Position numbers and translations under genes: made by a program. Positions 1,588-39,178 of a DNA stretch of 64,000 nt are shown piece after piece. Below the pieces are notes generated by a model that saw only the letters and a program-made list of their open reading frames with translations, was not told the DNA's origin and ran no database searches. Each line of letters opens with the position of its first letter. Position 1 is the first letter of the stretch. This stretch comes from Escherichia coli (lineage in GTDB: Bacteria > Pseudomonadota > Gammaproteobacteria > Enterobacterales > Enterobacteriaceae), in the NCBI RefSeq assembly GCF_030384885.1, contig NZ_CP128613.1; one strand, 5' to 3'.

Positions 1588-1645
1588 TGTCTTAAACCTA
1601 TAAAAAAGGCGCAGAATCCTGCGCCTTTTGTTTCAAGAGTTAGCT

Positions 1646-4351
1646 TTATTGCAGGCGACCGTGGCACTGCTTGTATTTTTTACCAGAACCGCACGGGCAA
1701 GGATCATTACGTCCAACTTTGCGTTCACCGGTTTGTGCCGCCAGTGCAGCTGCGGCTGCAGAGTCATCATCCTGATGGCTAAGCTGCTGCATTTGCGCTA
1801 AACGCTCGGCTTCCATACGACGCTGTTGTTCCAGCTCTTCAACCTCTTCAGGCATACGTACCTGGACTTTGCTCAGCGTGCTGATGACTTCATATTTCAG
1901 CGACTCCAGCATCGCTGCAAACATGGAGAACGATTCACGTTTGTATTCCTGCTTCGGATCTTTCTGTGCATAGCCACGCAGGTGGATACCTTGACGCAGA
2001 TAATCCATCGCTGCCAGGTGCTCTTTCCACAGGGAGTCAAGCGTTTGCAGCATGACGCCTTTCTCGAAGTGACGCATCATCTCAGCGCCAACCACTTCTT
2101 CTTTACGCTGATACACTTCGATGGACTGCGCCAGAATACGCTCACGCAGCGTCTCTTCATGCAGTTCTGGCTCTTTGTCCAGCCACTCGGCAATCGGCAA
2201 ATCGAGGTCGAAATCGTTCTTCAGACGTTCCTGCAGCCCCGGAATATCCCACATTTCTTCCAGCGACTGCGGCGGAATGTAGGCATCGATGGTCGCTTTG
2301 AACACATCTTCACGAATGCTGTTGATGGTATCGCTCACATCGCTGACATCCAGCAGTTCATTACGCTGGGAGTAAATAGCGCGACGCTGATCGTTAGCCA
2401 CGTCATCATATTCCAGCAGTTGCTTACGAATATCGAAGTTACGGCTTTCAACTTTACGCTGAGCGTTGGCAATCGCTTTGGTCACCCACGGGTGCTCGAT
2501 GGCTTCGCCTGGTTTCATACCCAGTTTACGCATCATGCCGGAAACACGGTCAGAAGCAAAAATACGCATCAGCGCATCTTCCATCGACAGGTAGAAACGG
2601 GAAGAACCGGCATCCCCCTGGCGCCCAGAACGACCGCGTAGCTGGTTATCGATACGACGAGATTCGTGACGTTCTGTACCGATGATATGCAGACCACCTG
2701 CAGCCAGTACCGCATCGTGACGCACCTGCCAGTCGGCTTTGATTTTTTCAATTTGCTCTGCGGTCGGATTTTCCAGCGCGGCAACTTCTGCCTGCCAGCT
2801 ACCACCGAGCACAATATCTGTACCACGACCCGCCATGTTAGTCGCGATAGTCACCGCCGCCGGATAACCCGCTTGTGCAACAATCGCTGCTTCGTTAGCG
2901 TGGAATTTGGCGTTCAGAACGTTGTGTTTGATACCGGCTTTGGTCAGCTCGTTTGACACCAATTCCGATTTTTCGATGGAGATAGTACCCACCAGCACTG
3001 GCTGGCCCTTCGCAGTACGCTCTTTGATATCTTCGATGATCGCCTGGATTTTTTCCGCTTCAGTCATATAGACCAGATCTGGCAGATCTTTACGAATCAT
3101 CGGACGGTTGGTTGGAACAACAACGGTATCCAGCTTGTAGATTGAGCTAAATTCGAAAGCTTCGGTATCAGCAGTACCGGTCATGCCCGCCAGTTTTTCA
3201 TACAAACGGAAGTAGTTCTGGAAGGTGATCGACGCCAGCGTCTGGTTTTCGTTCTGAATCTGTACACCTTCTTTCGCTTCCACTGCCTGATGCAGGCCAT
3301 CGGACCAGCGACGTCCCTGCATGGTACGACCGGTGTGTTCATCAACGATGATAACTTCACCATCTTTAACGATGTAGTCGACGTCACGGGTAAACAGTGC
3401 GTGAGCACGCAGCGCCGCGGTTACGTGGTGCATCAGCATAATATTAGCCGGAGAGTACAGCGACTCCCCTTCATCCATGATGCCTTCTTTCACCAGCAGC
3501 TCTTCGATCAGCACCAGACCACGTTCAGTCAAGTTCACCTGGCGAGATTTTTCATCCACCGAGAAGTGGCCTTCGCCCTGGAAGGTTTCGGAGTCTTCTT
3601 TTTCCTGACGAATCAGGTGCGGAATGATTTTGTTCACGCGTTTATACATTTCCGAGCTGTCTTCAGCCGGGCCGGAAATGATCAGCGGTGTACGCGCTTC
3701 ATCGATCAGGATGGAGTCCACTTCGTCCACCAGCGCATAGTGCAGTTTACGTTGTACACGTTCTTCAGGGCTGAATGCCATGTTATCGCGCAGGTAGTCA
3801 AAGCCGTATTCGTTGTTCGTACCGTAAGTGATGTCAGCTGCGTAAGCTTCACGCTTCGCCGGTGCTGGCATGCCCGGCAGGTTGATACCGACAGTCAGGC
3901 CAAGGAATTCAAACAGCGGACGGTTGTTTTCGGCGTCACGTTGCGCCAGGTAGTCGTTGACGGTAACAACGTGTACGCCCTTACCGGTTAATGCGTTCAG
4001 GTAAGCAGGCAGCGTTGCGGTCAGGGTTTTACCTTCACCGGTACGCATTTCCGCGATGCAGCGTTCGTTAAGAACCATACCGCCGAGTAACTGAACGTCG
4101 AAGTGACGCATACCAAAGACGCGCTTACTTGCCTCACGCACCACAGCGAAAGCTTCTGGGATCAGATTTTCCAGCACTTCGCCTTTTTCCAGACGTGCAC
4201 GAAACTCTGCGGTTTTCCCTTTCAGTTCTTCGTCGGAGAGTTTTTCCATCTCCGGTTCCATGGCATTGATGATGTTGACGACTTTGCGCATCCGGCGCAG
4301 GGTGCGATCGTTACGACTACCGAAAACTTTAGTTAATAATTTGATTAGCAT
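1646..4351 (-). CDS. secA: preprotein translocase ATPase SecA
   Basis: 901-aa ORF with Walker A GEGKT and C-terminal zinc-binding [14 protein letters not shown]. Confidence 0.95.
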
Positions 4352-6173: not shown

Positions 6174-7325
6174 TTAATCAGCTTGCTTACGCAGGAATGC
6201 TGGGATATCCAGATAATCCGGCTCTTTCGCAGTTTGCGGTGCGTTGTCATTCACGACTTTAGCAACCGGTTTCTGCTCCTGAGTCAGCGGTGCCATCCCG
6301 TGCTGCTGGTAGCGATCCATCACTGGCTGCTGAACCTGCTTATTGGTCACCAGGGTGATTTCAGGACGTTTGTCCATACCGATACCTGTCGCAACAACAG
6401 TTACGCGCAGCTCGTCATTCATATCCGGGTCAAGAGAAGTACCGATAACCACAGTTGCGTTGTCGGATGCAAATGCACGGATGGTGTTACCTACCGTTTC
6501 GAACTCATCCAGACGCAGGTCGAAGCCCGCCGTGATGTTAACCAGCACGCCGCGCGCGCCAGACAGATCGATATCTTCCAGCAGCGGAGAGGAGATAGCC
6601 ATTTCAGCAGCTTCTTCCGCACGGTCTTCGCCGCTCGCCACACCAGAACCCATCATTGCGTAGCCCATTTCAGACATTACGGTACGTACGTCTGCAAAGT
6701 CCACGTTCATCAGGCCTGGACGAGTAATCAGTTCAGCGATACCTTGCACAGCACCTTTCAGTACATCGTTCGCTGCGCCAAATGCATCCAGCAGGGAAAT
6801 ACCGCGGCCCAAGACTTTCAGCAGTTTGTCGTTAGGGATAGTGATCAGAGAGTCCACATGCTTGGACAGTTCTGTGATCCCCTGCTCAGCGAATGCCATA
6901 CGCTTCTTGCCTTCAAAGTTGAAAGGCTTAGTCACGACAGCAACGGTCAGGATCCCCAAATCTTTTGCCACTTCAGCGACAACTGGTGCTGCACCAGTAC
7001 CGGTACCACCACCCATACCCGCAGCAATAAAGACCATGTCTGCACCTTCCAGCGCCGCACGCAGTGCATCGCGATCCTCATCAGCCGCATTACGGCCAAC
7101 TTCTGGATTTGCGCCAGCTCCCAGTCCTTTGGTGATACCGCTACCGATTTGAATCGTCTGTCCAACCGCTGTTTTACGCAGCGCTTGTGCATCGGTATTT
7201 ACCGCGAAGAATTCAACACCTTCAATGCGCTCGCGCACCATGTGTTCAACAGCATTACCGCCGCCGCCGCCGACGCCGATGACTTTAATCACCGCGTCAT
7301 TGGTAAGTTCCATTGGTTCAAACAT
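6174..7325 (-). CDS. ftsZ: cell division GTPase FtsZ
   Basis: 383-aa ORF with tubulin signature GGGTGTG and N-terminal [12 protein letters not shown]. Confidence 0.97.
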
Positions 7326-7385
7326 AGTTTCTCTCCGATTTGTGCCTGTCGCCTGAGGCCGTAATTATCGTCGGCCTCATAAAAA

Positions 7386-8648
7386 TTAAAACTCTTTTCG
7401 CAGCCAACTATTGAGTCGCTTGATCCACGAGCCAACTGATGCTGTAACACGTTTTTCTACTTCAGCTTCACCGTTAAGATGTGACTCTTTCCCATAGTGA
7501 AGCAATCCCACCGCCGTCGAATAATACGGCTCCTGAGCATAATCCGTTAAACCGGTAATGTTCAGCGGCGCGCCGATACGCACTTGCGTATGAAACACGC
7601 GCTGAGCACAGGCTGCAAGACCTTCGATCTGCGCTGCGCCACCAGTTAAAACAATGCCTGCCGCCAGGTGATGTTTAACCCCTTGTTGGCGAAGCTTTTC
7701 CTGCAACTGCAATATCTCTTCGTTGACCAGGTTGAGCAGCTCGGTATAGCGCGGCTCGATCACCTCTGCCAGGGTCTGACGTTGCAGACTCCGCGGTGGA
7801 CGACCGCCTACGCTAGGCACTTCCACGCTCTCATCTTTTCCAACGATGGAACCCAGCGCACAACCGTGGCGAACTTTAATCGCTTCGGCGTCGCTTGGCG
7901 GCGTGCCAAAGGCGTAAGCGATATCACTGGTCACGACATTGCCAGCATAAGGAATTACCTTAGTGTGGCGCAATGCCCCACCGGTATAAACGGCGATATC
8001 CATTGTACCACCACCGATATCGACGACGCAGACACCCAGTTCACGTTCATCTTCCGTCAATACCGAATAACTTGATGCCAGTCCGGCAAATATCAGTTGG
8101 TCAACTTTCAGCCCACAACGTTCAACCGCTTTGACGATGTTTTTCGCCATATCGTTGTGACATGTGATCAGGTGCACTTTTGCCTGCATCCGCACGCCCG
8201 AAAGTCCTACCGGATTCTTGATCCCTTCCTGATAGTCAATCGCATACTCTTGCGGGATCACATGCAGCACACGATGCTCATCGCGCACACGCACTGATTT
8301 CGCGGTATGGACGACGTTTTCCACATCTTCTTGCGTCACTTCTTCTTCAGAAATAGGCACCATACCAATTTCATTCTGGCAGCTGATGTGCTTACCAGAA
8401 AGCGCCAGATATACCGAAGAGATCTGACAATCTGCCATCAATTCTGCCTGGTCAATGGCGCGTTGTACGCACTTGACCACGGATTCGAGGTCGTTCACCC
8501 CGCCTTTATCCATACCACGCGACGGGCAGCTGCCCACGCCAATGATATTGACCATACCGTCGGGCAGAACTTCCCCTACTAAAGCGGCAACCTTCGCGGT
8601 ACCAATCTCCAGTCCTACTACCAGTTTTCTGTCCGTCGCCTTGATCAT
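7386..8648 (-). CDS. ftsA: cell division protein FtsA (actin-like ATPase)
   Basis: 420-aa ORF; dcw cluster synteny. Confidence 0.95.
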
Positions 8649-28260: not shown

Positions 28261-28919
28261 ACTTAACTCCACTGTCACACTTAACTCCCTTTCCCTTATT
28301 GGAATGCAGAGAAATAATCCTCGAGAATATGATTTATCATGCATATAAAATAAGAAAAAGGAAAATGAGAAAAATTAGGAAAACATAAAGATACGGGTTC
28401 TTATAAAAACAGAACCCATTGCCGAGTAAAGAGTCATTTACCGCAGCATAATAATCCATAATGTTTTTGTTGCGAAAGCAATCTAATCATAACTACCGCG
28501 AATACTCAATCATCCACAAAATGGATTAAATGTGCTTTTTTAATAATTAATTTATATGTTTAATGCATTAATTCTTAACATTAATCGAACAATAATATTC
28601 ACCAAATGAATATCAAAAAAATTAGCAAAACATATAATTCAATACAAATCATCAAGATAGGTTTTGTAACGCGTGCATTTTATCCCCCTTTTCCTCGTTG
28701 ATTAGATACAAAAATTTATTCTGAAATATGTCAACCGATGAAAAGCGTCGGTGGTTAAGCAGAAATTAATATCGCTTGTTTTAACCACTGCAGCACAATT
28801 AGCTAATTTGACGAATGCAGAACTCACTCTGGCGGAACGTTTTTGTTGCGTCAGGGTTGACATCCGTTTTTGTATCCAGTAACTCTAAAAGCATATCGTA
28901 TTCATCTGGAGCTGATTTA

Positions 28920-29006
28920 ATGACTCACATCGTTCGCTTTATCGGTCTACTACTACTAAACGCATCTTCTTTGCGCGGTAGACGAGTGAGCGGCATTCAG
29001 CATTAA
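28920..29006 (+). CDS. leuL: leu operon leader peptide
   Basis: 28-aa peptide [28 protein letters not shown] with four consecutive Leu codons. Confidence 0.9.
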
Positions 29007-29019
29007 GCCAGCACGCAGT

Positions 29020-29056
29020 CAAACAAAAAACCCGCGCCATTGCGCGGGTTTTTTTA
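29020..29056 (+). terminator. leu operon attenuator terminator
   Basis: Stem aaacccgcgc...gcgcgggttt followed by a T-run, between leuL and leuA. Confidence 0.8.
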
Positions 29057-33780: not shown

Positions 33781-33811
33781 TTTGTACACCGTCCGGCACT
33801 CAATCGCCAAA

Positions 33812-34040
33812 AAGAAAAAAGCCAGCAGATAATCACTGCTGGCGTGGCGATTAACACCAATACTCAGTCACACATGATGTCCGCAAATCAGTAGTCAGAA
33901 TGACTCCCCTCCCACTGCATCAGCTCTTCAAGCATGGTTAATCGTTGTGGGACGCTTAACCAACGCAACCAGCACAACGTCGCTGTCGCGGTAAAATAGT
34001 GCTGATAAAACTGACGCATGGGGCACCTCCTTGCTTCATC
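33812..34040 (-). ncRNA. sgrS: SgrS small RNA (glucose-phosphate stress), dual-function
   Basis: 5' end reads GATGAAGCAAGGAGGTGCCCCATG on the minus strand; ptsG-pairing region GTGTGACTGAGTATTGGTGT; 3' hairpin ccagcagtgattatctgctgg plus T-run; divergent from sgrR. Confidence 0.8.
33888..34019 (-). CDS. sgrT: SgrT small protein encoded within SgrS
   Basis: 43-aa ORF MRQFYQHYFTATATLCWLRWLSVPQRLTMLEELMQWEGSHSDY inside the sgrS transcript. Confidence 0.7.
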   Translation of the reverse strand: MRQFYQHYFTATATLCWLRWLSVPQRLTMLEELMQWEGSHSDY

Positions 34041-34107: not shown

Positions 34108-35763
34108 ATGCCATCCGCTCGTCTGCAACAACAGTTCATCCGCCTGTGGCAATGCTGCGAGGGTAAATCGCAGGACACGACGCTCAACGAACTGGCAGCG
34201 TTATTGAGCTGCTCGCGTCGTCATATGCGCACCCTGCTCAACACCATGCAGGATCGCGGCTGGCTGACGTGGGAAGCGGAAGTCGGGCGCGGTAAACGCT
34301 CTCGTCTGACATTCTTCTACACCGGGCTGGCGCTTCAGCAACAGCGAGCAGAGGACCTGCTGGAGCAGGATCGTATCGATCAACTGGTGCAACTGGTTGG
34401 CGACAAAGCGGCTGTGCGGCAAATGTTGGTTTCTCATCTGGGGCGTACCTTCCGCCAGGGGCGGCACATCCTGCGCGTTCTCTACTATCGTCCGTTGCGC
34501 AATCTGCTGCCCGGCAGTGCATTGCGCCGTTCCGAAACCCATATCGCCCGGCAAATCTTCAGTTCGCTAACGCGCATAAATGAGGAAAATGGGGAACTGG
34601 AAGCAGACATCGCCCACCACTGGCAGCAAATATCACCGCTTCACTGGCGCTTCTTTTTGCGTCCAGGAGTCCATTTTCACCATGGTCGTGAACTGGAAAT
34701 GGACGATGTGATCGCCTCTTTAAAACGAATCAATACGCTTCCGCTCTATTCACATATTGCGGACATTGTGTCGCCGACGCCCTGGACGCTGGATATCCAT
34801 CTCACGCAACCGGACCGCTGGTTACCGTTACTGCTGGGGCAAGTTCCGGCGATGATCCTGCCACGAGAATGGGAAACCCTCAGTAACTTTGCCAGCCATC
34901 CCATCGGCACCGGTCCGTATGCGGTGATCCGCAACAGCACCAATCAACTGAAAATTCAGGCATTCGATGACTTCTTCGGTTACCGGGCATTAATCGACGA
35001 AGTTAACGTCTGGGTTCTGCCGGAAATTGCCGACGAGCCAGCCGGCGGTCTGATGCTAAAAGGTCCACAGGGCGAGGAAAAAGAGATTGAAAGTCGGCTG
35101 GAGGAAGGTTGCTACTATTTACTGTTCGACAGCCGCACCCACCGTGGGGCGAATCAGCAAGTCAGGGACTGGGTAAGTTATGTGCTTTCTCCAACTAATC
35201 TGGTCTATTTCGCCGAGGAACAATACCAGCAACTCTGGTTTCCGGCTTATGGACTGCTCCCCCGCTGGCATCATGCCCACCCGGCGCAGTGCGAAAAACC
35301 TGCCGGGCTGGAAAGCCTCACCCTGACCTTTTATCAGGATCATATTGAGCATCGGGTGATTGCCAGGATCATGCAGCAGATTCTGGCAAGTCATCAGGTC
35401 ACACTTGAAATTAAAGAGATCAGCTATGATCAGTGGCACGAAGGAGAGATCGAGAGCGATATCTGGCTTAACAGCGCCAACTTTACGCTGCCGCTGGATT
35501 TTTCGCTGTTCGCGCACTTGTGCGAGGTGCCGCTGCTCCAACACTGTATTCCGATCGACTGGCAAGCCGACGCCGCCCGCTGGCGCAATGGCGAAATGAA
35601 CCTGGCGAACTGGTGCCAGCAACTGGTCGCCAGCAAAGCAATGGTGCCGCTCATCCACCACTGGCTGATCATTCAGGGGCAACGCAGTATGCGCGGCCTG
35701 CGCATGAACACTCTCGGCTGGTTCGATTTTAAATCCGCGTGGTTTGCGCCACCGGATCCATGA
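34108..35763 (+). CDS. sgrR: transcriptional activator SgrR
   Basis: Start trimmed to [15 protein letters not shown] to give 551 aa; N-terminal HTH plus solute-binding-like domain. Confidence 0.9.
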
Positions 35764-35794
35764 TTGCTGGTTGATAACAAAATCACTACACTAA

Positions 35795-35890
35795 CGCCGT
35801 TCTCAACGGGGTGCCACGCAGACGCGTGCGCTGAGAAAATACCCGTCGAACCTGATCCGGATAACGCCGGCGAAGGGATTTGAGGCTCCT
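35795..35890 (+). ncRNA. TPP riboswitch (THI element) in the thiBPQ leader
   Basis: Conserved THI-box segments ggggtgcc ... ctgaga ... acccg ... gaacctgatccggataacgccggcgaaggga upstream of thiB. Confidence 0.8.
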
Positions 35891-35926
35891 TCTCAAGTCC
35901 TTTGCCACTCTTCTTTGAGGTGCAAA

Positions 35927-36910
35927 GTGTTAAAAAAATATCTTCCCCTGCTGTTGCTCTGTACAGCACCCGCTTTCGCTAAACCCGTTCTGACTGTTTA
36001 TACCTACGATTCCTTCGCCGCCGACTGGGGGCCAGGTCCGGTGGTGAAAAAAGCCTTTGAAGCCGACTGTAATTGCGAACTGAAACTGGTGGCGCTGGAA
36101 GATGGCGTTTCGCTTCTCAACCGTCTACGGATGGAAGGCAAAAACAGCAAAGCCGATGTGGTGCTGGGGCTGGATAACAATCTGTTAGATGCCGCCAGCA
36201 AAACCGGGCTGTTTGCTAAAAGCGGTGTGGCAGCAGATGCGGTAAATGTACCCGGCGGCTGGAATAATGACACTTTCGTCCCGTTTGATTACGGTTATTT
36301 CGCCTTCGTCTATGACAAGAACAAACTGAAAAATCCGCCGCAAAGCCTGAAAGAGCTGGTTGAAAGCGATCAGAACTGGCGAGTGATTTATCAGGATCCA
36401 CGTACCAGTACGCCGGGCCTGGGCCTGTTGTTGTGGATGCAAAAAGTCTATGGCGATGACGCCCCACAAGCCTGGCAGAAACTGGCGAAGAAAACGGTCA
36501 CGGTCACCAAAGGCTGGAGCGAAGCCTACGGCCTGTTCTTAAAAGGCGAAAGCGATCTGGTACTGAGTTACACCACCTCTCCGGCTTATCACATTCTCGA
36601 AGAGAAGAAAGATAACTACGCCGCCGCGAACTTCAGCGAAGGTCACTATTTGCAAGTGGAAGTCGCCGCCCGCACCGCTGCCAGCAAACAGCCGGAGCTG
36701 GCGCAAAAATTCCTCCAGTTTATGGTTTCTCCGGCTTTTCAGAATGCGATCCCAACCGGCAACTGGATGTATCCGGTGGCAAACGTCACGCTGCCTGCCG
36801 GTTTTGAAAAATTGACCAAACCGGCAACCACGCTGGAGTTCACGCCAGCCGAGGTGGCGGCACAACGTCAGGCATGGATTAGCGAATGGCAACGCGCCGT
36901 CAGCCGTTAA
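35927..36910 (+). CDS. thiB: thiamine ABC transporter periplasmic binding protein
   Basis: GTG start chosen to give 327 aa; signal peptide LKKYLPLLLLCTAPAFA. Confidence 0.88.
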   Translation: MLKKYLPLLLLCTAPAFAKPVLTVYTYDSFAADWGPGPVVKKAFEADCNCELKLVALEDGVSLLNRLRMEGKNSKADVVLGLDNNLLDAASKTGLFAKSGVAADAVNVPGGWNNDTFVPFDYGYFAFVYDKNKLKNPPQSLKELVESDQNWRVIYQDPRTSTPGLGLLLWMQKVYGDDAPQAWQKLAKKTVTVTKGWSEAYGLFLKGESDLVLSYTTSPAYHILEEKKDNYAAANFSEGHYLQVEVAARTAASKQPELAQKFLQFMVSPAFQNAIPTGNWMYPVANVTLPAGFEKLTKPATTLEFTPAEVAAQRQAWISEWQRAVSR

Positions 36911-38496
36911 TTCCCGGCTGGTTAATTCCAGGCGTAAGCGCCGCTACGCTTGTGGTGGCGGTTGCACTGGCGGCATTTCTCGCCCTGTGGTGGAACGCGC
37001 CGCAGGGTGACTGGGTGGCAATCTGGCAGGACAGCTACCTGTGGCATGTGGTGCGCTTCTCCTTCTGGCAGGCGTTTCTCTCGGCGCTGCTCTCTGTCGT
37101 ACCCGCGATATTCCTCGCCCGCGCGCTCTATCGCAGGCGCTTTCCGGGTCGGCTGACGCTGTTGCGTCTGTGCGCAATGACCTTGATCCTCCCGGTGCTG
37201 GTTGCTGTTTTCGGCATTCTTAGCGTCTATGGTCGCCAGGGCTGGCTGGCATCACTCTGCCAATCGCTCGGTCTGGAGTGGACCTTTTCGCCCTACGGCC
37301 TGCAAGGTATTTTGCTGGCGCACGTATTTTTTAATCTGCCGATGGCGAGCCGCTTATTACTCCAGGCACTGGAAAACATTCCCGGCGAACAACGTCAACT
37401 TGCCGCCCAGCTTGGGATGCGCGGCTGGCATTTTTTCCGCTTCGTCGAATGGCCGTGGTTACGGCGTCAAATCCCGCCGGTTGCCGCGCTTATCTTTATG
37501 CTCTGTTTCGCCAGCTTCGCCACCGTGCTATCGCTGGGCGGCGGTCCGCAGGCGACCACTATCGAGCTGGCAATCTATCAGGCGCTGAGTTACGACTACG
37601 ATCCCGCCCGCGCGGCGATGCTGGCGCTGATCCAGATGGTTTGTTGCCTTGGGCTGGTGCTGTTGAGTCAGCGACTAAGTAAGGCCATTGCGCCCGGCAC
37701 CACGCTGCTGCAAGGCTGGCGCGACCCGGACGATCGTCTGCATAGCCGCATTTGCGACACGGTGTTAATTGTGCTGGCGCTGTTGCTGTTGCTGCCACCG
37801 TTACTGGCGGTGCTCGTCGATGGGATAAATCGCCAGTTGCCGGAAGTGCTGGCGCAGCCGGTGCTGTGGCAGGCACTGTGGACCTCGTTGCGTATTGCGC
37901 TGGCGGCAGGCGTATTATGCGTAGTGCTGACCATGATGCTGCTATGGAGCAGTCGCGAATTGCGGGCACGGCAAAAAATGCTGGCGGGTCAGGCGCTGGA
38001 GATGAGCGGAATGCTGATCCTCGCCATGCCGGGGATTGTGCTGGCAACGGGCTTCTTTTTACTGCTCAACAACACCATCGGCCTGCCACAATCTGCTGAC
38101 GGCATCGTGATTTTCACCAATGCGTTAATGGCCATCCCTTATGCGCTGAAAGTGCTGGAAAACCCGATGCGCGATATCACTGCCCGCTATAGCATGCTTT
38201 GTCAGTCGCTGGGCATTGAAGGCTGGTCGCGCTTAAAAGTGGTGGAGCTGCGCGCCCTGAAACGTCCGCTGGCGCAGGCGCTGGCCTTTGCGTGTGTGCT
38301 GTCGATTGGTGATTTTGGCGTGGTGGCGTTGTTCGGTAACGATGATTTCCGCACCCTGCCGTTTTATCTCTACCAGCAAATTGGCTCCTATCGTAGCCAG
38401 GATGGCGCGGTGACCGCGTTAATTCTACTGCTGCTCTGTTTTCTGCTGTTTACCGTGATTGAAAAACTACCGGGGCGAAATGTTAAAACTGACTGA
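36886..38496 (+). CDS. thiP: thiamine ABC transporter permease
   Basis: 536-aa polytopic membrane ORF; synteny. Confidence 0.9.
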
Positions 38497-39178
38497 TATC
38501 ACCTGGCTTTATCACCATTTGCCGATGCGTTTTAGCTTAACGGTGGAACCCGGCGAGCAGGTGGCGATCCTCGGGCCAAGCGGCGCGGGTAAAAGTACCC
38601 TGCTAAATTTGATCGCCGGTTTTCTGACGCCAGCCAGCGGTTCGCTGACTATCGATGGTATTGATCACACCACTACGCCGCCGTCACGCCGTCCGGTATC
38701 GATGCTGTTTCAGGAGAACAACCTGTTCAGTCACCTGACGGTCGCGCAGAACATCGGGCTGGGGCTTAATCCTGGATTGAAGCTGAACGCGGCGCAGCAG
38801 GAGAAAATGCATGCTATCGCCCGCCAGATGGGGATTGATAATTTAATGGCGCGATTACCGGGCGAGCTTTCTGGCGGTCAGCGACAGCGCGTGGCGTTAG
38901 CGCGTTGTATGGTGCGCGAACAGCCGATTTTATTGCTCGATGAACCGTTCTCTGCGCTCGATCCGGCGTTACGTCAGGAGATGCTGACGCTGGTGAGCAC
39001 GAGCTGCCAGCAGCAAAAAATGACGCTATTGATGGTGTCGCACAGTGTGGAAGATGCGGCCCGGATCGCCACACGCTCGGTGGTGGTCGCCGACGGGCGC
39101 ATCGCCTGGCAGGGTAAGACTGAAGAATTGTTGAGCGGTAAGGCGAGTGCTTCGGCAATATTGGGGATTACGGGTTAG
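38480..39178 (+). CDS. thiQ: thiamine ABC transporter ATP-binding protein
   Basis: Start [13 protein letters not shown] gives 232 aa; Walker [10 protein letters not shown] and signature LSGGQRQR. Confidence 0.9.

Follow-up and report, generated by a model that had tools for sequence, protein, structure and literature searches.

The sgrR-thiB intergenic region

In a 64-kb stretch of Escherichia coli DNA, hereafter the window, the thiBPQ operon follows sgrR on the same strand after a gap of 163 bp (35764-35926), in which or next to which the following features lie:

35761-35763, + strand: stop codon TGA of sgrR (NCBIfam NF010149, SgrR, 1122 bits)
35764-35792, + strand: putative weak sigma-70 promoter of thiBPQ (-35 TTGCTG at 35764-35769, 17-bp spacer, -10 TACACT at 35787-35792)
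35799, + strand: transcription start, the 5' end of the SroA equivalent (transferred by gap-free alignment from the 5' end of K-12 sroA, 75608)
35927-36910, + strand: thiB, with GTG start at 35927-35929 (NCBIfam equivalog TIGR01276, 646.6 bits)
36886-38496, + strand: thiP (NCBIfam equivalog NF006953, 1195 bits)
38480-39178, + strand: thiQ (NCBIfam equivalog NF008039, 448.6 bits)
35927-39178, + strand: regulated operon thiBPQ, the thiamine/TPP ABC importer (NCBIfam equivalogs and RefSeq annotation of an identical genome)

The original prediction, made from the raw sequence, had placed a TPP riboswitch (THI-box) controlling thiBPQ in this gap, whose length it gave exactly, and had named it as the source of the SroA RNA of K-12. 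In a 301-base stretch around the element, the identity to E. coli strain 2013C-4282 (NZ_CP027579.1) is 100%, and the annotated genes of that record coincide with the open reading frames of the window from coaE via the dcw cluster, leu, sgrRST, thiBPQ and ara to folA-kefC; the GTG at 35927 is the thiB start used by RefSeq in that genome. Two mechanical open reading frames run antisense over the riboswitch and the thiB start, at 35673-35969 (- strand, 98 aa) and 35786-35908 (- strand, 40 aa); both have GTG starts and are unannotated in RefSeq.

In K-12 MG1655 (NC_000913.3), thiB (tbpA) and sroA occupy the same locus, with flanking genes and a 163-bp gap that match those of the window. The ncRNA gene sroA (b4762) is annotated there at 75516..75608 on the minus strand, with 35 nt separating it from either neighbour, and a gap-free alignment carries it to 35799-35891 of the window, thereby bearing out the proposed link to SroA. 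Between the sgrR stop and the first codons of thiB, differences from K-12 are found at 35820-35821 (GU to AG), at 35913 (U to C) and at two thiB codon positions. From the transcription start to the GUG, the two leaders thus differ in three bases, with P1, P2, P4, P5, the linker, the Shine-Dalgarno sequence (SD) and the GUG being identical: the P3 tetraloop is GUAC in K-12 and AGAC here, and the loop of the sequestering hairpin has C instead of U at 35913. None of the three differences alters a predicted pair, and the OFF and ON folds and their energies are identical to those of K-12.

The numbering used in PMC11487190 (G121 in the SD, U130 in the GUG) likewise makes 35799 nucleotide 1, and 5' RACE in Salmonella mapped the start to 129 nt before the GTG, equivalent to 35798 (PMC3511261). 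The putative promoter was positioned by hand, from the sequence and with reference to the transferred start. With only 7 of the 12 consensus positions matched, it was missed by a consensus scan of 35500-36100, which found no sigma-70 promoter with at least 9 of 12 matches. Expression from the natural promoter has been reported to be low and unaffected by TPP (Grondin et al., PMC11487190).

Identity and anatomy of the aptamer

A cmscan search of the whole window against all 4227 Rfam families returned five matches above their gathering scores, among them RF00059 (TPP, THI element) at 35797-35896 on the + strand, with 66.1 bits against a gathering score of 54.3 and E = 9.1e-11. The match takes in the whole model (positions 1-105 of 105) without truncation. 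Bases equivalent to exactly the same span are labelled "riboswitch / TPP riboswitch" by PGAP/RefSeq in strain 2013C-4282. The riboswitch upstream of thiBPQ was thus confirmed, above a curated threshold, by the covariance-model search with RF00059 that had been proposed as its check and whose failure to give a match would have spoken against it. The span originally given, 35795-35890, picks out the right element, namely its aptamer/SroA part, with ends that are off by 2 nt (5') and 6 nt (3') relative to the Rfam match; the expression platform at 35885-35929, which continues down to the start codon, also belongs to the functional switch. The parts of the aptamer, P1 to P5 and J3/2 being taken from the Rfam alignment, are:

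35797-35896, + strand: TPP aptamer (THI element), full RF00059 model, with the same span in the PGAP annotation of the identical genome
35802-35806 (CUCAA) with 35880-35884 (UUGAG), + strand: P1, extendable by U35801-G35885
35807-35810 and 35812 with 35839 and 35842-35845, + strand: P2 (strands 35807-35812/35839-35845)
35813-35831, + strand: P3, with loop AGAC (GUAC in K-12)
35832-35837, + strand: J3/2 motif UGAGAA
35851-35854 with 35873-35876, + strand: P4
35857-35870, + strand: P5, with 35857-35860 paired to 35867-35870

All the listed pairs were checked and are canonical in the window, and each part of the three-way junction, that is P1, the P2/P3 pyrimidine-sensor arm and the P4/P5 pyrophosphate-sensor arm, maps to it. 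The motifs that we looked for, CUGAGA in J3/2 and ACCUGAUCYGG..UAA..CCRGCG.AGGGA in the core of P4/P5, can be read directly in GCUGAGAA at 35830-35837 and GAACCUGAUCCGGAUAACGCCGGCGAAGGGA at 35848-35878. Their role in contacting the ligand is known from the published thiM crystal structures, and they are invariant in 17 Enterobacterales leaders, with one exception in the placement by MAFFT of the leader from locus L114. The unconstrained minimum free energy (MFE) structure of the isolated aptamer does not reproduce P1 and P2 exactly (z = -1.42), which is usual for ligand-stabilised aptamers.

One could argue that such a match is a chance resemblance, or a relic that has no function in this strain, as its score lies only about 12 bits above the gathering threshold. 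This narrow excess is due to the missing optional P3a stem, which is the sole departure from the RF00059 consensus. The ligand-contacting motifs CUGAGA and ACCCGUCGAACCUGAUCCGGAUAACGCCGGCGAAGGGA are all intact, only the three bases noted above, all of them in hairpin loops, distinguish the leader from that of K-12, which has been validated experimentally, and the thiBPQ operon downstream is intact. The E-value, which applies to a search of the whole window, rules out chance, as do two further observations: the leader (35790-35935) is present in exactly one copy in 5398 of 5426 complete E. coli genomes, with at least 95% identity in all but 2, and orthologous places in 14 of 15 non-E. coli Enterobacterales loci have RF00059 matches above the gathering score (63-80 bits). 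We consequently regard a chance or relic origin as vanishingly improbable. The leader is annotated as a riboswitch in all 25 E. coli records among the matches listed. Three of the 5398 matches sit on records that are typed as plasmids.

The defining features of RF00059 that are open to computation are all present, and TPP binding, published for the near-identical K-12 RNA, would extend to this leader by analogy. The element is the E. coli thiB (tbpA) TPP riboswitch/sroA locus itself, which is already known and well studied. We assign a probability of about 0.97 to the reading that the thiBPQ leader is a TPP-sensing OFF riboswitch that mainly controls translation initiation.

Alternative helices of the expression platform

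The thiB GTG lies on the same strand 31-42 nt from the end of the aptamer, and is followed by thiP and thiQ. The following features connect the two:

35869-35906, + strand: antisequester (extended anti-P1) hairpin of the ON state, with 5' strand 35869-35885, loop 35886-35890 and 3' switching strand 35891-35906 (UCUCAAGUCCUUUGCC)
35900-35927, + strand: sequestering hairpin of the OFF state, with outer helix CUUUGC 35900-35905/GCAAAG 35922-35927 and inner helix CUC 35908-35910/GAG 35917-35919
35917-35920, + strand: Shine-Dalgarno sequence GAGG, read from the sequence just upstream of GCAAAG

A chain of repeats and complementarities links the aptamer to the start codon. UUCUCAA at 35890-35896 is an exact copy of the region of the 5' P1 strand at 35800-35806; CCUUUGCC at 35899-35906 is complementary to GGCGAAGG of the aptamer (35869-35876); and GCAAAG at 35922-35927, whose last base is the first G of the GUG, is complementary to CUUUGC at 35900-35905. 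The 5' strand of the antisequester hairpin is accordingly made up of the 3' strands of P5 and P4, the junction and the 3' strand of P1. This hairpin alone has an MFE of -21.3 kcal/mol (z = -4.47), with 0 of 200 shuffles being as stable. The sequestering hairpin alone, which buries the SD and the first G of the GUG, has an MFE of -11.6 kcal/mol (z = -3.20). To mimic the TPP-bound state, we enforced the aptamer pairs, and the remainder of the leader then forms the sequestering hairpin.

Equilibrium folding was dropped as a means of discriminating the ON and OFF states. At full length the MFE structure contains a shortened anti-P1 hairpin alongside the sequestering hairpin, the predicted accessibility from the SD to the GUG is similar with and without the enforced aptamer (0.34 versus 0.26), and neither the MFE nor ensemble accessibility differs much between the states. 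As equilibrium folding hardly separates the free from the aptamer-enforced state, we used an MFE scan of the growing transcript. Here, the anti-P1 hairpin displaces P1 from about 35898 onward. Transcripts that end at 35907-35922 have as their MFE structure a 16-bp extended antisequester (35869-35885/35891-35906), which dismantles P4/P5 and ties up CUUUGC, and the sequestering hairpin becomes competitive only once 35925-35928 have been transcribed. Given that equilibrium folding does not separate the states, the ON state would therefore have to be a kinetic and transient outcome, which folding by itself can suggest and not prove.

The leader thus combines the two sets of alternatives that are typical of translational OFF riboswitches of the thiB/thiM type, P1 against anti-P1 and the antisequester against sequestration of the SD and start codon, with the lack of an intrinsic terminator: on the + strand, a consensus scan covering 35500-36100 gave no terminator-like element.

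Mode of regulation

The K-12 switch has been dissected experimentally in two studies. A reporter assay revealed TPP-dependent repression, with point mutants of the aptamer being constitutively ON, a mutation that weakens the pairing of the ribosome-binding site abolishing the response to TPP, and deletion of linker nt 95-99, the CUCAA copy, locking the switch OFF, so that the linker CUCAA is essential (Berman et al., PMC10578472). The numbering of that study, in which nt 85-89 of the 3' P1 strand fit no single offset together with nt 5-9 and 95-99, was mapped to the window by sequences instead of numbers, with UUCUCAA occurring twice, at 35800-35806 and 35890-35896. SHAPE-Seq in the same study detected a transient antisequestering stem (PMC10578472). 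[quoted passage not shown] These results, which concern the response to the ligand, control at translation and the requirement for the linker, were obtained with the K-12 sequence, and would apply to the present leader by its near-identity, three loop bases being different. Likewise, the co-transcriptional, kinetic decision suggested by our growing-transcript scan has been reported experimentally elsewhere.

It has to be considered whether the riboswitch acts chiefly by ending or destabilising the transcript, through intrinsic or Rho-dependent termination or RNase E cleavage, and not by blocking the ribosome. The mRNA level is also lowered by TPP in PMC11487190, where transcriptional lacZ fusions were repressed 1.6- to 3.9-fold, repression persisting in a GUG-to-GAG start-codon mutant; the papers disagree on this point, mRNA-level regulation being absent with a shorter construct in PMC10578472. 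The existence of a short stable 5' fragment (SroA) would fit such a mechanism too, as would the use of Rho plus translation control by E. coli thiM and thiC (cited in PMC10578472 and PMC11487190). Against it, the + strand has no terminator-like hairpin with a U-tract, the sequestering hairpin being followed by GUGUUAAAAAAA, and in vitro transcription yielded only full-length product at all TPP concentrations, without intrinsic termination, while the Rho inhibitor bicyclomycin left repression unchanged (PMC10578472). The sequence scan and this in vitro experiment together exclude attenuation by an intrinsic terminator. Furthermore, the aptamer-closed structure covers the SD and the start codon, and the mRNA-level regulation requires the SD. 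As it is lost in an SD mutant (PMC11487190), it appears to depend on ribosome binding, and we treat its contribution as secondary. On balance, a switch working chiefly through the fate of the transcript seems unlikely, and control of translation initiation is the preferred reading.

The E. coli thiM riboswitch, whose aptamer is the crystallised one, combines translational control with Rho. Its P5 differs in sequence, being GAUCUGG...CCAGCG, against GAUCCGG...CCGGCG in the window. It belongs to the same aptamer class and follows the same P1/anti-P1/SD-sequestering logic, the two being structurally very similar (PMC11487190). Nevertheless, the thiM operon encodes salvage kinases and the thiB operon an importer, and the mRNA-level effect in thiM needs 34 codons and Rho, whereas that in tbpA needs 12 codons and bicyclomycin had no effect there (PMC10578472, PMC11487190). 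Terminating TPP riboswitches, such as those of the Bacillus subtilis tenA/thiC type and of Neisseria meningitidis thiC, share the aptamer family and the ligand. In contrast to thiB, with its SD/start-codon sequestering hairpin, their platform is an intrinsic terminator.

SroA: fragment of the leader or trans-acting RNA

The K-12 annotation of sroA transfers to the window as a single feature:

35799-35891, + strand: SroA equivalent, 93 nt, comprising the aptamer and 7 nt of linker (coordinates from K-12 RefSeq, NC_000913.3, b4762)

The discrete 93-nt ncRNA annotated in K-12 raises the alternative that the region is primarily the gene for a trans-acting sRNA (SroA/sYJ20), with the aptamer-like fold being incidental or secondary. 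Studies in Salmonella lend this some support: a species of about 100 nt increases about 3-fold under tigecycline or tetracycline, its deletion slightly lowers survival and is complemented from a plasmid, for which the authors argue a riboswitch-independent role, and an sroA deletion reduces fitness in mice (PMC3511261, the last as cited there). These phenotypes are confounded, as the authors note, because the deletion also removes the thiBPQ leader. An independent sRNA gene would be expected to have its own promoter, a terminator or processing site, and validated targets, a combination that is not found here. SroA and the thiB mRNA have a common 5' end (PMC3511261), SroA lacks a terminator of its own, and its 3' end at 35891 lies inside the antisequester hairpin, 7 nt past P1, as would be the case for a trimmed or prematurely ended leader. 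In the literature that we found, there is no validated target, and the constraints of aptamer and switch fully explain the sequence conservation. We therefore consider a primarily trans-acting RNA gene very unlikely.

As the + strand has no terminator-like site, the 3' end of SroA is apparently not a site of intrinsic termination, and the 93-nt RNA is most likely a stable, aptamer-containing 5' fragment of the riboswitch leader rather than a separate gene. That this fragment accumulates when TPP closes the switch and acts in trans, for instance under stress from antibiotics or the host, as has been proposed for sYJ20 of Salmonella, strikes us as a long shot; if true, it would link thiamine status to other pathways.

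Conservation across Enterobacterales and beyond

We aligned 17 Enterobacterales thiB leaders with MAFFT (alignment A2), including those of Escherichia, Superficieibacter, Enterobacter, Klebsiella, Yersinia, Photorhabdus and Acerihabitans. The antisequester hairpin is the MFE structure in 17 of 17 leaders, at -18 to -28 kcal/mol, and the CUUUGC/GCAAAG sequestering helix in 15 of 17, Enterobacter sp. Bisph1 and Yersinia having a different fold. In the outer sequestering helix, 100% of cells are paired. The OFF structure, P1-P5 included, has 94.3% of cells paired, versus 28-53% in slid controls, with the 3' partners displaced by 1-3 columns, and the ON helix 89.0%, versus 42-62% in the slid controls, a comparison in which the structures are favoured because they were derived from the window sequence. 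Shuffle controls were uninformative, as the alignment columns barely vary.

P3 varies in sequence by genus yet forms a hairpin in 15 of the 17 leaders, such as CACGC/GCGUG, GCAUC/GAUGU, GGACA/UGUCC and GGCUGUU/AACAGCC, with none being predicted for Superficieibacter and L114; its compensatory changes (2 pairs, 9 cells) are seen even on a structure-blind alignment of the leaders. Outside P3, no two-sided covariation was found in the 17 leaders of alignment A2. Changes in P1, P2, P4, P5 and the outer sequestering helix, where there are any, affect one side only (GC to GU, UA to UG), and the comparative support for the platform is conserved pairing potential, not covariation. The SD itself differs by genus, being GAGG in Escherichia and Enterobacter and AGGAG or AAGGA in Yersinia, Photorhabdus and others, and the opposing pyrimidine stretch varies accordingly. 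In contrast, all 17 leaders have the same GCAAAGUG, which includes the unusual GUG start codon.

Two natural variants affect P3. In Citrobacter werkmanii NBRC 105721 (L022:9769-9904), an insertion of about 135 nt lies exactly in P3 of the orthologous thiB riboswitch, with a core (GAGTGAATCCCCAGGAGCATAGATAACTATGTGACTGGGGTAAGCGAGC) that resembles the ERIC/IRU enterobacterial repeat. No Rfam TPP match reaches the gathering score at this locus. Its MFE structure keeps P1, P2, P4 and P5, with the insert forming a long hairpin that extends P3 (-85.4 kcal/mol, z = -7.05), and the folding suggests that it may be a functional aptamer missed by automated annotation. In E. coli strain H2 (NZ_CP028733.1, L125:61-196), a 10-nt deletion equivalent to 35815-35824 removes most of P3 (CACGCAGACG) and leaves GGGGUGC|CGUGCGCUGAGA, and PGAP still annotates a 90-nt TPP riboswitch there. 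P3 thus tolerates extremes of length, from a 10-nt deletion to the insertion of a repeat element of about 135 nt.

Beyond the order, a DNA-pattern scan with the P4-P5 core GAACCTGATCCGGNTAANNCCGGCGNAGGGA over one genome per species gave at least 120 loci across many phyla, the exact core occurring in over 120 species that range from Proteobacteria to Spirochaetes, Chloroflexi, Bipolaricaulota and Bathyarchaeota. In 46 of 122 loci, these being the 120 matches listed and the E. coli references L001 and L002, tblastn detected a ThiB homologue (E < 1e-10), and in 44 of the 46 it follows the pattern on that strand at a distance of at most 500 nt; about 38% of the examined loci with the core pattern have a ThiB homologue close downstream. 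Expression platforms differ, with Rhizobiales leaders, for example, pairing GCGCC...CC with GGAGGCGC around an AUG start.

Other features of the window

Several further elements of the window deserve mention. At 33781-33813, between the leuD stop (33780) and the SgrS terminator (33814), leuD abuts sgrS/sgrT, and setA, which in K-12 lies beyond sgrS, between it and leuD, is absent. Of 5426 complete E. coli genomes, 2143 cover this junction to at least 80%, and the others match in the leuD part alone, with about 88% identity. This looks like a common presence/absence polymorphism of setA, bordered by a divergent 3' end of leuD. Two textbook elements lie nearby, the leucine operon leader/attenuator upstream of leuA (28906-29055, + strand, Rfam, 147.5 bits) and SgrS (33814-34040, - strand, 228 bits), which together with the sgrT open reading frame at 33888-34019 is divergent from sgrR.

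A full-length match to RF02797, PssrA ('Plasmid-encoded Shigella sRNA A'), is present at 7317-7406 (- strand, 106.9 bits, gathering score 69). It is chromosomal and lies across the ftsA stop/ftsZ start junction, sense to ftsZ (ftsZ 6174-7325, ftsA 7386-8648), where the family name seems misleading; the match may simply be the ftsZ 5' leader. Similarly, an Rfam STnc40 match at 1602-1670 (- strand, 77.6 bits) overlaps the 3' end of secA (1646-4351, minus) and a terminator hairpin before mutT, and is probably an RNA derived from the secA 3' end/terminator. Between rluA and djlA (51759-52700), the annotation of the identical genome has a frameshifted transposase fragment (51759-51937) and espY1 (51954-52700, - strand), a type III secretion effector islet that marks an attaching-effacing (EPEC/EHEC-like) lineage. 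Between apaH and folA (60797-61528, - strand), a CcdB-family toxin pseudogene fragment (60797-60868) and a gene of the 'plasmid pRiA4b ORF-3 family' (60914-61528) look like a remnant of mobile DNA in a gap of the core genome.

A model for the switch and its implications

We propose the following sequence of events. Transcription would start at about 35799, about 35 nt past the sgrR stop, and the first 87 nt or so would fold into the TPP aptamer, P1-P5. If TPP is bound while the RNA is being made, P1 (CUCAA 35802-35806/UUGAG 35880-35884) would be locked and the switching strand 35891-35906 would stay free; its CUUUGC could then pair with GCAAAG (35922-35927) in the hairpin that buries GAGG and the first G of the GUG, so that ribosomes could not load and the thiamine importer would not be made. 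When TPP is scarce, the switching strand would invade the aptamer by means of UUCUCAA, the copy of the 5' P1 strand, and of the complementarity between CCUUUGCC and GGCGAAGG, and form the 16-bp antisequester stem with the 3' half of the aptamer. This stem would destroy the ligand pocket and withhold CUUUGC from the sequestering hairpin, as a result of which the ribosome-binding site would stay open.

The locus serves as a positive control, in that the earlier reading of raw sequence was accurate within a few bases. It carries little weight as a discovery, the element being automatically annotated by PGAP, included in Rfam and dissected experimentally in K-12. As to the evolution of the leader, the chain of complementarity that runs from the invariant aptamer segment GGCGAAGG through its pairing with CCUUUGCC to CUUUGC/GCAAAG may explain why GCAAAGUG, with its unusual GUG, is invariant: a single 16-nt switching strand would be constrained by the aptamer on one side and by the start codon on the other.
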